Positions 1,987 through 16,623 of a stretch of DNA of 23,379 nucleotides are shown here, one piece after another. Where the stretch lies: IMG/VR virus record IMGVR_UViG_2802429220_000004. The stretch is one strand, 5' to 3'. The notes beneath the pieces were generated by a model. That model was not told the origin of the DNA and did not search any database. It was given only the letters and a program-made list of their open reading frames with translations. Both the position numbers and the translations under genes were made by a program. Origin of the DNA: a virus. Its lineage: Duplodnaviria; Heunggongvirae; Uroviricota; Caudoviricetes. Every line of letters starts with the position of its first letter. Position 1 is the first letter of the stretch.

Positions 1987-4900
1987 TCAGCTGATACTGA
2001 TGCCTGCGGTGGCTTTCTTCATCACCACAACCAGCAAATCGCTGATACTTGCTGTGGGATACCAGTTATTCACCAGCCATGCTGACACCGAAAACTCCAG
2101 TGTCATGTGACCGTGACCGGCAGGCATATCAATAACGCCACTGTAAATCAGCGTATTATCCAGCGCGGTACGGTTATAAATTTCAGCACCGTTTTTCCGC
2201 ACTATCAGACGGCATGAGGAGTAAATATCAGTATGCTCTCTCTCATGCTTAGCGCCACTGAATGCCACCGCCGGAATAACAATCTGCCGGTCAAACGGCT
2301 GATCGTCATAAACCCTGACGGTAATGGTCCCTGATGGCCACCGCTCCGGTGCCCGGGAGTCCCGCGGGAAAGCCTTACCCACTGTTTTGACAATATCGCC
2401 TTCAATCTGGTTGGCTGACAGTTTCCCCTTAATCTGACAGTTCTCATTAATCGTGACGTTGTTGAGCGTCCCTGAGTTCGCATTCACACTGCCACTGATA
2501 TCCGCATTTTTAGCGGTCAGCTTTCCGTCCGGTGTCAGGGAAAATGCCGGTGGATTTCCACCACTGGTAATGGTGGGGGCCGTCAGGCGTTTCAGGAACA
2601 CGTCGTTCATGAATATCTGGTTGCCCTGCGCCACAAACATCGGCGTTTCATTCCCGTTTGCCGGGTCAATAAACGCGATACGGTTAGCGGCAACCAGAAA
2701 CTGGCTCAGTTTACCGTCCTCCGTGTCCTCCATGCTGAGGCCAAGCCCGGCAACATAATGCTTACCGTCTTCGGTCTGCTCAATTCTGACGCCCCACATG
2801 GCATTCCATTTATCGTTAGCGTCTTTCCACTCTTTCGAAAACTCATCCAGTCTGCTGGCGTTATCTTCCGTCAGTTCAGCGTTTTCCAGCAGCTCTTTAC
2901 CGAGATGTGTTTTATTAATCAGCCCTTTGTAAAAATTCAGGTAGCCTTCGGCATCATCGCTGGCCCGGCCGACGGCCTCCACAAATGCCGATTTGCCCAC
3001 CAGGTTGACGCTGCGGATATAAAAATAATAATCATGGCCCGGCCTGATATTACTGGCGGCTGTCCAGTACAGCGCCGTGCCAAGATAGCGGGCGGAGGTT
3101 TCAACCTGCCTGATATCCGCAATCTGCTGTTCCGAAAACCAGAATTCAAACTGCACCGTCGGGTCATATACAGCCAGTTTCGGGACCGCCGTTATCTGAA
3201 AATACCCCGGTATCAGTTCAATGGTGGCAGGCGCTGCCGGGGCGTCAATCCGGAACGTGGTGGTGGCAGGTTCGCCCTGCTGGCCATAGCTGTTAATCGC
3301 CCTGACCGTCAGGGTGTATTCCCCGGGCGGCAGACCACTGAAACGGTGCGCCGTGTCTGCGGTGATGGCGGTGGTCACCAGGCGGCTGTTTTCACCGCTT
3401 CCGCTGGTCAGACGCAGACTGAAGCTCACACCTTTCACCACCCGCGGCGTGTCCCATTTCGCCTGCGCCAGATACTGGCCGTCTGAGGCACTCACCTCCA
3501 CCGTGAGGTGCTGCACTGCCGGAGGGATAACGCTGTTCAGGGTGCCTGACTGCGGCTCAAAGCTGGCCCCGTTATCCACGATGGCTTCTTTTTCCGGTAC
3601 GTGCTGCACCGCCGTGATGGCAAAGGTGCCATCCGTGTTTTCCCGGATGGCGACACAACGGAACAGGCGACGACGCAGTGACGGCAGGGAGAGTCCCCAC
3701 ACACCGTATGTCGCCACGCCATCAGGCAGGGTACTGACCTGTATCCGGTCCGGCGCGGGGTGTGCGGTGATGTCCACACTCATCGGCTTACCGCTGCCGT
3801 TAATCAGGTTCACCGTGGCGGTACCGGTCTCCGGCAGTGTCACCTCACGGTCCAGCGTCAGTGTGCGGCTGGCAGCGTCGATGGACAGGATACGTCCGCC
3901 GGTCAGGGTCCCGGCGTAGTCGTTATCACAGATTTCAATGATGTCTCCGGGCGTGTGCCGCAGCCCCTGTGACCCGAGCGTGAAATCCACCGTCTGCGTT
4001 TCCAGCAGTCCGGTCTTTATCACCCACAGTCCGGCACGGTGGGCCTGACCACGACTGGTGCAGCCGAACGCATCCATCTTCAGCAGGTTGCGTCCGTAGC
4101 GCAGTATGGCTTCCGGGTCTTCCACCAGTTCCGTGGAGGTCTGCCAGCCGTTCTGCGGGTCGGTGTAATTCACCTCCACTGCCGTGTGACGGTCCTTCAG
4201 GGCGCTGAAGCTGTAGCGGAACCCCACGCCGTTATCATCCACCACCACATCGCTGTTGGTGTACGGCCACACCACATCCGACGGGCGGTCCTGAACGAAC
4301 GTCAGCGTCTGGCCGTTCCATACCGGCATACAGCGCATCGCCGAGCAGAAATCGCAGAGCACATCCCATGCCTTACGCTGCTGTGACAGGTACGCATTAA
4401 ACGTCATCCGCGGCTCTGTCCCTCCGAAGCCATCCGGGACACGCTGGTCACAGTACTGCCCGATGGCATACAGCGCCCACTTGTCCACATCCGCCGCCCC
4501 CAGACGTTTTCCCATGCCGTAGCGCGGGTGAGTCAGCATGTCCCACAGGCACCAGGCCGGATTGTTGCTGTATGCCGGTTTCAGACTGCCGTCCCAGATA
4601 CCGCTGTAAGTGCGTTTTTCCGGGTCATAGTTTGACGGCACCTGGATGATGCGACCGCGGATATGGTAGTTCACCGTCATCTGCTGGCCACCGAACTGCT
4701 CCGCATCCACCTGCAGCCCCACAATGGCCGTGTTCGGGTAGCACTGTTTCACATCGATGATTTCGGTGTATGACGACCACAGCGTTCTGTTCTGCAGCTG
4801 GTCCGTGGTGCTGTCCGCCGTCTCCCTGACCATCCGGATGTTAAAGGGGCGGGGAGGCAGATTATCCAGAATCACCGACGCCAGAAACTGCGAGGTGGTC

Positions 4901-5373
4901 TTGCCGTTAATGGTGACATCCTTTTCCGTCACCCAGTTACCGTTACGCTGTAACTGAATCAGCAGCCGGACAGAAGCCGGATTACGGTCACCCTGTGAGG
5001 TTGTCTGCACCAGTGACTGTACGCCGAAGGTGACCCGCAGGCGGTCAATGTTCGCGGACGTAATGGTGCGCGTCACCGGCTTTGCCTTCGTCACTTCCAC
5101 GCCCAGTGCGGTTTCAGCTCCGGAGGACTCAAAGCCTTCCGGCGGGGTCTGCTCCTGCTCCCCGGCGCGCCAGACCGCGGTCACACCGTGTATCACGGGA
5201 TTACCGTCCGTGTCCGTCAGCGGGGTTTTGTTCACCAGGATACTCTGCAGTCCCTTCACCGGGCCTTCCACCGGTCCCTCTCCAATCGCATCAATCACGC
5301 TCATCATCTGCGTGGATTTGAGATTATCCTTTGCCTCAACCGGCGTGTGCCCCTTGCCGCCACCTTTGCCCAT
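1987..5373 (-). CDS. J: Tail tip / host specificity protein J
   Basis: Co-linear with lambda J from [22 protein letters not shown] through most of the length; start placed at the ATG for MGKG (5373) rather than the upstream alternative start the track uses (5415); the C-terminal roughly 150 aa diverge from lambda J. Confidence 0.93.
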
Positions 5374-5404
5374 TGTCTCACCCTTTACTGTGATAACTGT
5401 TACG

Positions 5405-5437
5405 CACAAAAACAACAGGCATCCCGGAGGATGCCTG
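5405..5437 (-). terminator. Terminator-like hairpin about 35 nt upstream of the J start
   Basis: Perfect 9-bp stem caggcatcc/ggatgcctg with loop cgga; on the minus strand followed by TTGTTTTTGTG. Confidence 0.45.
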
Positions 5438-5566
5438 TATCATGACTGAATAAAAATTCTGAATTTCTTCACATTCTGAAAAAAAAGACTGTTGCGCTGA
5501 TAAATACGCTGCGTTACTTTTTAGTGCCTGAAAAATAACTCCATAACGTTAATCTTCATCGTTCTC

Positions 5567-5600
5567 TCCCGCAGCTCCGCGATCACTGCGGGATTTTTTT
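5567..5600 (+). terminator. Plus-strand terminator-like hairpin plus T7 run just past the 3' end of I
   Basis: tcccgcag-(11-nt loop)-ctgcggga followed by ttttttt on the plus strand. Confidence 0.4.
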
Positions 5601-5607
5601 ATTCTTT

Positions 5608-6288
5608 TTACCCCTGCCGCCCGATAACCACGACCTTTCCGCCCCCGCCTTCATCACGGGTGCTGATGTCCTGGGATATACGGCGGGAGCCAACCAGCAT
5701 TTCCCCGTAAGGCACCGGCATCGGGTTCCCCTGGGCAATCATGTTATCCAGCGAGGAAAAGTACGTGTTCTGTCTGCCGTTATCCGTTGCGCGGTAATCC
5801 GGTGTTTTTGCCTTCGGGGCCAGCATCTGGGCCACACCGCCCAGAATCATGCTGGCTCCCAGTGAAAACAGCATCGTGGTGGCAGAAAAACCGCCGGCAC
5901 TCAGGGCTGTACCCCATAACGCCATCGAGGCACCGGCAGTGAAGAAAGAGCCCACGATGGCTGCCGCCCCCAGCACAATCTGCAGTCCACCCTTTCCGGC
6001 CCCGGCCAGTCGCGGCACAATGTGGATGACCGTTCCCTCACCCAGCTGTTCGTGAAGACGGGCGTACACCGCCTCCGGTGCCGTGTCCTCACCGCGAATA
6101 CGTATCTGGTACCAGCCTTCGTTCATCTGACGGCGGAATCCCGGCATCTGCATCGACAGGGCACGGATGGCTTCCGCTGCCGTGTTCACATACAGGCTGA
6201 GGCGGCGGCCAAATCGTTGCAAATCCCCGTGAAGGCAGATGCGTGCCAGTGGCGGTGACGCCAGACAGAATGCGTTCGTCGTTGCCAT
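5608..6288 (-). CDS. I: Tail assembly protein I
   Basis: Strong similarity to lambda I (…RICLHGDLQRFGRR…, glycine-rich hydrophobic middle, C-terminal …GGKVVVIGRQG). Confidence 0.9.
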   Translation of the reverse strand: MATTNAFCLASPPLARICLHGDLQRFGRRLSLYVNTAAEAIRALSMQMPGFRRQMNEGWYQIRIRGEDTAPEAVYARLHEQLGEGTVIHIVPRLAGAGKGGLQIVLGAAAIVGSFFTAGASMALWGTALSAGGFSATTMLFSLGASMILGGVAQMLAPKAKTPDYRATDNGRQNTYFSSLDNMIAQGNPMPVPYGEMLVGSRRISQDISTRDEGGGGKVVVIGRQG

Positions 6289-15262: not shown

Positions 15263-16623
15263 TTTTTCAGAATCCCCCTGAACATCGCTTTCACCGCATC
15301 ATGCTCTGTTTCACTGATTGCCTTATTACCGTCAGATGCGCCGTCAGGCGGTTGCGCTAAGGCCGTTTTCCCGGTCGACGCGAACGGATCCTCACGGGCA
15401 TCACGACGGGACAGTGCCTCCAGACTGTAGTTCTGCTGCTGAAGATACAGTGCATCACCGCCGGCCAGGGGCGGCAGGTTCTCCCGTTTACGGGCCTCAT
15501 TGGGCGTGAGAAGCGTATTTTTCACCGCATCCCCCAGCGTTTTCATGCGCCGCTCACTGTCCATTCTCAGCAGCGTGGTGACATCAAATTCTGTACTCTC
15601 GTTTTCCCCCGTTTCCAGCGCCTCATCCAGTAACAGTTCAATGGACTCAATCAGCGTCTGCAGGCACTGGGAATAATACTGCTGCTCCAGCGCCTCCACG
15701 TTGTCACTGGAAGGCGGTTGTCCCACGCCAATCTTGTAGGCCGGGACACGGAACACCGAACAGACAATTTCAGCGGTCATCTTCAGTTGTTCCACCGTCT
15801 GCGCATCCACCGGTGAAAACGTCGTGGGGTTATATTTTGCCCCGTTGCTCAGAATGGCCGTTTTCCCCGCATTTTCGCCGGTATACCCGCTGTCCCAGTT
15901 GCTCTTCAGTTTTTTCGCATTTTCTTCCGTAATACTGCCGGGGATCTCAATCACCCCGGACGGCATGCCGCCATTTCTGAAAAAATACGTCGAATTTTCC
16001 TGAATATGATGCCCCTGCGTGGCGGCCAGCCCGGCGGCATACACCGGCGGCAACCCTATAAGCGGATGAAAAAAACAGTTAAACCGGTCGTGGATCACTT
16101 CCCGGGCAGGCACCGTCACCGCCTCAGTGATCCCGCAGTTCCGGTCCGGCGTGATGCGGTAGAACACTTCGCCGTCATCCGCCACCAGTGGTTCAACCCG
16201 GCTCCAGTCCAGAATGCGCAGTTCTTTGATCTGCCCCCGGGAGTTACGGATTTTCAGCACCACCGTATTGCCGTGACGCAGTTTGGCGTTCAGCCACAGT
16301 TCAAAAAACTGGATGCGGTTCTGCTGGGCGTTGGGACGACGACAGAGGCGGGCAATATCCCCCCGGCGAGTTTCCCTGCGTATCCCCTGCGCATCCGTCT
16401 GCATAAGACGCAGCCGCATTTTGGCGATATCCTGGGATATCAGCGAAATGCACGAAAACACCGCATGAAAGGAGAGGACGGCTTCCGGATCGGCTTTCAC
16501 GCCCTGCTGCCAGGCGCCGGAAAAGGGCTCAGCCACCGCCTGAAACAGGCTGGTCCAGCCCGCCTCTCTTACGTCACGTCCTGATTTCTGGTTTTTTCGG
16601 GTTCGCTGTAAAAGGTTCCACAT
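15259..16623 (-). CDS. Portal protein, HK97 family
   Basis: Size (454 aa) and the …QLKMTAEIVCSVFRVPAYKIG… motif match the HK97-family portal signature as I recall it. Confidence 0.85.
   Translation of the reverse strand: MWNLLQRTRKNQKSGRDVREAGWTSLFQAVAEPFSGAWQQGVKADPEAVLSFHAVFSCISLISQDIAKMRLRLMQTDAQGIRRETRRGDIARLCRRPNAQQNRIQFFELWLNAKLRHGNTVVLKIRNSRGQIKELRILDWSRVEPLVADDGEVFYRITPDRNCGITEAVTVPAREVIHDRFNCFFHPLIGLPPVYAAGLAATQGHHIQENSTYFFRNGGMPSGVIEIPGSITEENAKKLKSNWDSGYTGENAGKTAILSNGAKYNPTTFSPVDAQTVEQLKMTAEIVCSVFRVPAYKIGVGQPPSSDNVEALEQQYYSQCLQTLIESIELLLDEALETGENESTEFDVTTLLRMDSERRMKTLGDAVKNTLLTPNEARKRENLPPLAGGDALYLQQQNYSLEALSRRDAREDPFASTGKTALAQPPDGASDGNKAISETEHDAVKAMFRGILKK

Follow-up and report, generated by a model that had tools for sequence, protein, structure and literature searches.

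A copy of PasB/EcOnc22-24, an already described family of Hfq-dependent prophage small RNA genes, most probably lies antisense to the tail genes in the I-J gap of a lambdoid prophage

Several small RNAs (sRNAs) that bind Hfq have been described from prophages of pathogenic E. coli. PasB is one of five prophage sRNAs obtained by Hfq RIL-seq in EPEC E2348/69 (Pearl Mizrahi et al. 2021; PMC8550237). It is 83 nt long and is encoded in prophage PP6 on the minus strand of NC_011601.1 (1466343..1466261), between two plus-strand genes (PMC8550237, Table S6). On northern blots it appears as an Hfq-dependent band of 83 nt, deletion of hfq changes its level by -6.8 (log2), and 37 RIL-seq partners were assigned to it (PMC8550237). 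In a 2026 preprint (Zhu, Shabalina and Storz, bioRxiv 10.64898/2026.05.13.724894) PasB was placed inside an operon of phage structural genes and described as widely distributed. From EHEC, three homologous Hfq-CRAC peaks were reported, EcOnc22 in prophage Sp15, EcOnc23 in Sp14 and EcOnc24 in Sp11, all on the plus strand (Tree et al. 2014; PMC4104026, Table S2). EcOnc22 was seen as an RNA of ~85 nt on northern blots and was destabilised without hfq (PMC4104026), and the Sp11 gap, ECs2161...ECs2162, belongs to the most Hfq-enriched intergenic regions, with reads ~100-fold biased to one strand. EcOnc22-24 are mentioned in neither of the two PasB papers (PMC8550237; bioRxiv 10.64898/2026.05.13.724894), so the equivalence is our own; as judged by sequence comparison, the names PasB and EcOnc22-24 appear to cover one family.

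We analysed 23,379 nucleotides of viral DNA (IMG/VR record IMGVR_UViG_2802429220_000004), referred to below as the window, which represent a lambdoid prophage with head and tail genes on the minus strand. The original prediction described an AT-rich, non-coding gap of 234 bp between the tail genes I and J, and this was borne out by the positions of the I stop and the J start and by the GC profile, with values of 0.32-0.42 over 5400-5600 vs. 0.55-0.70 in the flanking DNA. Homologues of the upstream ORF (5608..6288) are annotated as tail assembly protein in relatives. The two terminator-like hairpins that had been noticed in the gap, one with a U-run and one with T7, were found again by terminator scan and folding. 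Terminator-like sites numbered five at 5000-6000 vs. 1.1 +/- 1.0 in shuffles, and both gap hairpins fold stably, with z-scores of -2.5 to -2.9. They had been thought to face each other, which is not the case; each is placed to end a transcript leaving the gap, the plus-strand one towards the right and the minus-strand one towards the left. Nor is the gap free of ORFs longer than about 12 codons, as had been stated, since two 21-codon ORFs with GTG or ATG starts are present on the minus strand (5378-5443 and 5521-5586); neither of the two is conserved. The repeated attctgaa does occur twice (5456-5463 and 5473-5480), with only the first copy in a conserved element and the second specific to this sequence variant. 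Coordinates of the features are collected in Table 1.

Table 1. Features of the I-J gap and its borders in the window. An arrow marks positions read on the minus strand.
Feature	Position	Strand	Remarks
I-J gap	5374-5607		between the I stop and the J start; flanked by two minus-strand genes
J start codon ATG	5373->5371	minus	within ORF 1987..5415, read from an internal ATG
J Shine-Dalgarno AAGGGUGAG	5386->5378	minus	from the sequence
U-rich run UGUUUUUGUG after the junction hairpin	5414->5405	minus	terminator scan reports the following TGTTTTTGTG
Junction hairpin ACAGGCAUCC-UCCG-GGAUGCCUGU	5438->5415	minus	10-bp stem, 4-nt loop; terminator scan and folding
Cassette left edge	5450..5477	plus	holds the CRP-like box
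Box TCTGA-ATTTCT-TCACA	5458-5473	plus	AAAAAT upstream, TT downstream
Proposed -35 TTGCGC	5492-5497	plus	weak; 17-bp spacer to the -10
Alternative upstream hexamer GATAAA	5499-5504	plus	TATAAT in E2348/69
Proposed -10 TACTTT	5515-5520	plus	TAnnnT invariant in all 58 aligned cassettes
Predicted sRNA, PasB/EcOnc22 family	5524..5600	plus	~74-77 nt; 5' end estimated within ~3 nt, by extension of the RNA-seq coverage of another strain instead of mapped 5' ends
Conserved motif ACUCC, anti-Shine-Dalgarno-like	5538-5542	plus	fuller form across cassettes ACUCC(U/A)U
Conserved motif GUUAAUCUUCAU	5548-5559	plus	cassette alignment
Rho-independent terminator of the sRNA	5567..5600	plus	terminator scan and folding
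Stop codon TAA of tail assembly gene I	5608-5610	minus	ORF 5608..6288

Results of our comparisons indicated that the plus strand of the gap very likely carries a copy of the known Hfq-dependent prophage sRNA gene family PasB/EcOnc22-24, antisense to the tail genes. The nhmmer profile of the family matched the window only at 5527-5600 (E = 2.9e-19), and the PasB northern probe AATCCCGCAGTGATCGCGGAGCT is the exact reverse complement of plus-strand positions 5573-5595, again its sole match in the window. The window and E2348/69 gaps align over their entire length. In E2348/69 the neighbours of PasB encode tail assembly protein I and gpJ, and PasB, read from the other strand, stops 6 nt short of the I stop codon; the window copy likewise occupies the I-J gap opposite to the tail genes, with its end a few nucleotides from the I stop, and it shares with E2348/69 an identical terminator including the probe site, the GUUAAUCUUCAU core, the upstream box and the layout of the proposed promoter. 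It differs from PasB of E2348/69 in the 5' part (GUGCCUGAAAAAUAACUCCAUAAC in the window vs. UGCCCGAGUAACAAAAACAACUCCUUCAC), in a length shorter by ~6-9 nt and in having GATAAA in place of the upstream TATAAT. Like EcOnc22/23/24, it lies in the same gap and on the same strand. Sequence identity of the window RNA amounts to 95% with the Sp15 copy of Sakai and to 78% with PasB of E2348/69. The RNA combines an EHEC-type body with an E2348/69-type terminator loop; three terminator-loop substitutions and a 1-nt indel at the 5' end distinguish it from the Sp15 copy. By homology to the experimentally characterised copies, the product would be an RNA of ~75-85 nt that ends at the 5567-5600 terminator. 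As the element belongs to a family that has already been described, under two names, the finding is real but not new. The small RNA foreseen for the gap, placed here on the plus strand, has homologues in PasB, documented by northern blot and RIL-seq in EPEC, and in the Hfq-bound EcOnc22-24.

For the EHEC counterparts we located the I-J gaps of strain Sakai in NC_002695.2 (Sp15, 2902691-2902930; Sp14, 2676622-2676861; Sp11, 2166672-2166911), with the tail genes on the minus strand. The EcOnc22, EcOnc23 and EcOnc24 peaks each fall within the respective I-J gap, on the anti-tail strand and at the same offset in all three. The published EcOnc coordinates refer to an older Sakai record, so that a correction is needed when they are mapped onto NC_002695.2. 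The shift was measured at AgvB1 (1.94 Mb), where the peak at 1941783-1941835 of the old record corresponds to the Rfam AgvB match at 1941920-1941981 of the new one, and amounts to ~+137 to +146. The shift-corrected EcOnc22 peak covers the PasB-like RNA of Sp15, with the shift measured 0.2-1 Mb from EcOnc22-24, and the peak remains within the gap for any shift from 0 to ~150.

AgvB itself was considered as an identity for the window RNA and rejected, since its place is the PR' moron site and the window RNA lies between I and J. AgvB and AsxR (Tree et al. 2014) resemble the window element as small prophage RNAs of the Hfq-binding type, in which the 3' terminator module is conserved and the 5' pairing region varies, and in having a fixed insertion site in lambdoid prophages. 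They differ from it in that site, which is the PR' moron site or late-gene leader, and in sequence, which is unrelated; the Rfam AgvB and AsxR models gave no match in the window. A further difference is that PasB has no known sponge target.

Folding predicted the A/U-rich body of the sRNA to be unstructured, and its 5' stretch is variable among cassettes. The terminator is formed by an 8-bp GC-rich stem (5567-5574 paired with 5586-5593), an 11-nt loop and a U7 tract at 5594-5600; with its long U tail it is expected to serve as the Hfq-binding 3' module. The stem was identical in 33 variants, all of them retrieved by that exact stem, so this identity is no test of covariation. RNAalifold analysis of the same 33 variants, retrieved in this way, recovered the terminator only and no covariation.

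To describe the gene as a whole we used an alignment of 58 unique cassettes from 120 IMG/VR loci, E2348/69 and Sakai. In every sequence context the homology begins at ~5450. We consider it highly probable that the sRNA gene is a self-contained cassette, ~150 bp in length (5450-5600), that entered the late tail operon in the manner of a moron and is read in the opposite direction; the cassette can be read as an insertion between the junction hairpin and I. By this reading, the segment 5440-5520 would hold the promoter and regulatory sites and would not be part of the RNA. Within it, the box shows invariant half-sites, TCTGA and TCACA, among 47 unique cassettes, and the six nucleotides between them vary (ATATCT, ATTTCT, AACTCT, AATTCT, GTTTAT, ATTTAT, TTTTCT). 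In 1.1 Mb of related loci each cassette contains the box a single time, and one additional match is unrelated; in the 23-kb window the box is the sole match to TGTGAN6TCACA with at most one mismatch.

Assignment of the promoter is less direct. The proposed hexamers match the consensus at 7 of 12 positions, and a strict sigma-70 consensus scan found no promoter for the sRNA, so the assignment rests on conservation and on the published 5' end. The invariant TAnnnT follows the box at a conserved distance of 40-41 bp, and the 5' end reported for PasB of E2348/69 comes 6-7 nt after it. Many variants, that of E2348/69 included, have TATAAT 10 bp upstream of TAnnnT, which may represent a second promoter there.

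The box is a 16-bp inverted repeat that agrees with TGTGA-N6-TCACA at 9 of 10 positions. In the class I type of CRP-dependent promoter, exemplified by lac P1, the activator site is centred at -61.5. The box centre falls at -61.5 if transcription starts at the inferred position 5527, and, like at those promoters, it would lie upstream of weak core hexamers; unlike at those promoters, the distal half-site in the window is TCTGA. As the left half is TCTGA in every copy and never TGTGA, the bound factor may not be CRP, and we give control of the sRNA by CRP at best an even chance. The sRNA Spf (Spot 42) is repressed by CRP. PasB was higher in the non-activating condition, high in overnight static LB and low in DMEM, and Spf showed the opposite pattern between LB and DMEM (PMC8550237). 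The contrast agrees with activation by CRP and equally with RpoS, FNR, growth- or stationary-phase or low-oxygen control.

Among 5426 complete E. coli genomes, 799 contained homologues of the gap (median, three copies in each carrier), and ~145 phage records, mostly of Stx-converting phages, had them as well, a distribution that leaves little room for chance; EHEC genomes have a median of three and up to seven related gaps. Their location between I and J is strictly conserved. With the gap so widespread, the objection that it might lack conservation in related phages, which the original prediction had itself allowed for, fails. The exact gap sequence of the window recurs at an identity of at least 99% in 47 genome records; STEC2018-607, SHP24 and JNEC-KY171 are examples of strains with this gap. 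In the GenBank and RefSeq records of homologous gaps that we examined, the sRNA gene carries no annotation. Rfam covariance models gave no match in the window at gathering thresholds, and relaxing the cut-off to E <= 10 brought only chance-level matches, including Arrc14 and snoRNAs (the best, Arrc14, with 22.8 bits vs. a threshold of 99, E = 0.31). A terminator-pattern scan of genome contigs was too generic, retrieving unrelated terminators from many phyla (L123-L242), and was left unused.

Tandem arrays of two to four PasB-like cassettes, ~220 nt apart, were seen in 13 of the 120 loci. Each cassette of an array has its own box, promoter and terminator, and the 5' parts of the RNAs differ. 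The 920-nt I-J gap of one locus (L122:7517-8436) contains four cassettes; arrays were also found in L044, L089, L095, L096 and L039, and two cassettes in L035 and L088. The four-cassette L122 array recurs at a coverage of at least 80% in 67 complete E. coli genomes. Cassette arrays are not mentioned in the PasB preprint (bioRxiv 10.64898/2026.05.13.724894).

A second cassette sub-family was recognised in L122 (7834-7990) and in L004, L015, L035, L039, L044, L088 and L089. It has the same TCTGA-N6-TCACA box and promoter layout, with the motif ACUCCUUAA / ACUCCUUAAGGUGACUAUUCG, and a different terminator (CUCCCGU...ACGGGAG followed by a U-run). The form of the motif in L035 and L088, ACCUCCUUA, is identical to the 3' end of 16S rRNA. 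PasB-type terminators were found at two further places, L060:1924 and L114:8325; L060 also has a PasB-like RNA body without the upstream box, and L114 has unrelated sequence upstream of the terminator, with a TTGACG hexamer. These two may be cassette fragments, or the same terminator reused elsewhere. A separate moron-type insertion in the tail operon, absent from the window, was observed in Stx2a_WGPS8 (L001:4609-5613), where an antirepressor and small hypothetical genes lie between the tail genes L and K.

The EPEC and EHEC copies are expressed from the lysogen, bind Hfq, depend on Hfq for stability and form RIL-seq chimeras with dozens of mRNAs. By extension, the window sRNA would be made from the weak sigma-70 promoter (-35 at 5492-5497, -10 at 5515-5520), probably with the help of an activator bound at the invariant TCTGA-N6-TCACA box at about -61.5, a placement that resembles class I CRP sites. 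Pairing would be through the unstructured A/U-rich 5' body, in which ACUCC and GUUAAUCUUCAU are conserved; assisted by Hfq, the sRNA would regulate mRNAs of the host or of prophages in trans, and the likeliest mechanism would be a block of ribosome binding.

The alternative that survives best is an effect in cis, which we regard as unlikely to be the main role. The RNA is fully complementary to ~75 nt of the late I-J mRNA, and RNase III cutting or transcriptional interference could lower the expression of J and of downstream tail or cargo genes, from the own prophage or from related co-resident or superinfecting phages. Such a role is suggested by the position of the gene, wholly inside the late operon on the opposite strand and strictly conserved between I and J, and cross-pairing between prophages is possible in EHEC genomes with their median of three and up to seven related gaps. 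However, the published Hfq dependence and the many trans partners are typical of trans-acting sRNAs, the RNA lies clear of both the I coding sequence and the ribosome-binding site of J, and arrays with different 5' parts fit diversified trans seeds better than a single cis target. The two modes are compatible and not mutually exclusive.

If the gap were a decayed moron remnant or a simple insulator, it would consist of two leftover terminators and the window copy would have no functional product. The weak promoter consensus, the loss of the TATAAT of other variants and the database records without annotation would agree with decay. Yet the RNA body shares 95% identity with the copy expressed in Sakai, box, -10 hexamer and terminator have all stayed intact, and the exact sequence is found at an identity of at least 99% in 47 genome records. 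With all parts intact and this identity to an expressed copy, we hold a dead remnant to be improbable, and an sRNA gene of the PasB family remains our preferred reading.

The other hairpin of the gap, on the minus strand at 5405-5438, is by its form an intrinsic terminator, a GC-rich stem-loop directly adjoined by a U-rich run. One of its stem pairs covaries among variants, from U-A to C-G, and both intermediates occur too. The hairpin might end a second sRNA, paired with PasB and starting inside the gap, for example from CAGAAT at 5479->5474 and ending at the 5415-5438 terminator. In favour of this are the strength of the terminator with its U-run, a conserved block upstream of it (5439-5457) and the convergent sRNA pairs described at PR' moron sites (Tree et al. 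2014). No conserved -10/-35 pair was found on the minus strand, however; the ~100-fold bias of the Hfq-bound Sakai reads from the Sp11 gap is towards one strand; lambda has a hairpin without the cassette; and some relatives carry a swapped-in, unrelated hairpin at the same position. A second sRNA is accordingly a poor candidate, slightly behind the decayed remnant. The original prediction had left both strands open for a small RNA, together with a moron remnant; what stands is a moron-like sRNA gene on the plus strand, probably with transcription of its own, and the minus-strand hairpin most probably does not mark the end of a second one.

Comparison with lambda offers a better reading of this hairpin. 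The genes I and J of lambda had been taken to be adjacent, which is not strictly so; they are separated by 60 nt (NC_001416, 15445-15504) without a cassette and with a hairpin of their own, AAACCGCC-UGCG-GGCGGUUU, to which the U-rich run UUUUGUCAUUU is joined, shortly before the ribosome-binding site of J (L247:946-1008, corresponding to lambda 15445-15507). The lambda hairpin folds at -21 kcal/mol and was not flagged by the simple terminator scan. The window has the same layout, in which the tail-gene strand carries a GC-rich hairpin with a U-rich run immediately before the ribosome-binding site of J; the lambda hairpin differs in its dissimilar sequence and in the lack of an sRNA cassette. 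To our knowledge, no function has been assigned to it. The presence of an unrelated hairpin in the same position in lambda indicates that the junction hairpin of the window is part of the tail operon and not of the sRNA cassette. By this analogy, its most plausible reading is an ancestral terminator or stabiliser of the I-J junction, through which Q-modified late transcription would pass and which would stop or stabilise non-antiterminated transcripts ahead of J. Beside it, a small hairpin (UCAC...GUGA) is predicted at 5374-5398 on the minus strand, with the J Shine-Dalgarno in its loop and 3' arm, and the same is predicted in E2348/69 (L002:2975-2995); by this folding, it could modulate translation of J.

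Least probable is a small protein from the tail-gene strand, by which conservation of the core would reflect coding constraint: the 12-codon ORF MKINVMELFFRH (5559->5521), antisense to the conserved RNA core, does have a Shine-Dalgarno-like GGGAGAG 6 nt upstream, and E2348/69 keeps MKINV.ELF with several third-position differences, but roughly a third of the unique variants have ACG in place of the ATG or have lost it by deletion, the downstream indels are not multiples of three, the peptides are alike only in the first four or five residues, and Hfq-bound reads come nearly all from one strand, with EcOnc22-24 listed opposite the tail genes, so the ORF was rejected as conserved neither in start nor in frame.

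The gap is thereby explained by a further copy of an sRNA that earlier Hfq-CRAC, RIL-seq and northern blot work had revealed in EHEC and EPEC. For annotation, the value lies in an sRNA gene that is missing from Rfam and from the GenBank and RefSeq records examined, and the CRP-like box, the cassette arrays, the second sub-family and the shared anti-Shine-Dalgarno-like motif give testable leads to its function. A broader and quite tentative idea, which we think is more probably wrong than right, is that the I-J gap is a dedicated insertion site for modular sRNA cassettes, which share an activator box, a promoter layout and a terminator, have an exchangeable 5' pairing region, and occur singly or in arrays of up to four. 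If this is true, lambdoid prophages would possess a nutrient-gated, recombining set of sRNAs that reprograms host mRNAs, with the box possibly responding to CRP in carbon starvation; being antisense to the tail mRNA, the same set could also interfere with the expression of J in related rival phages.
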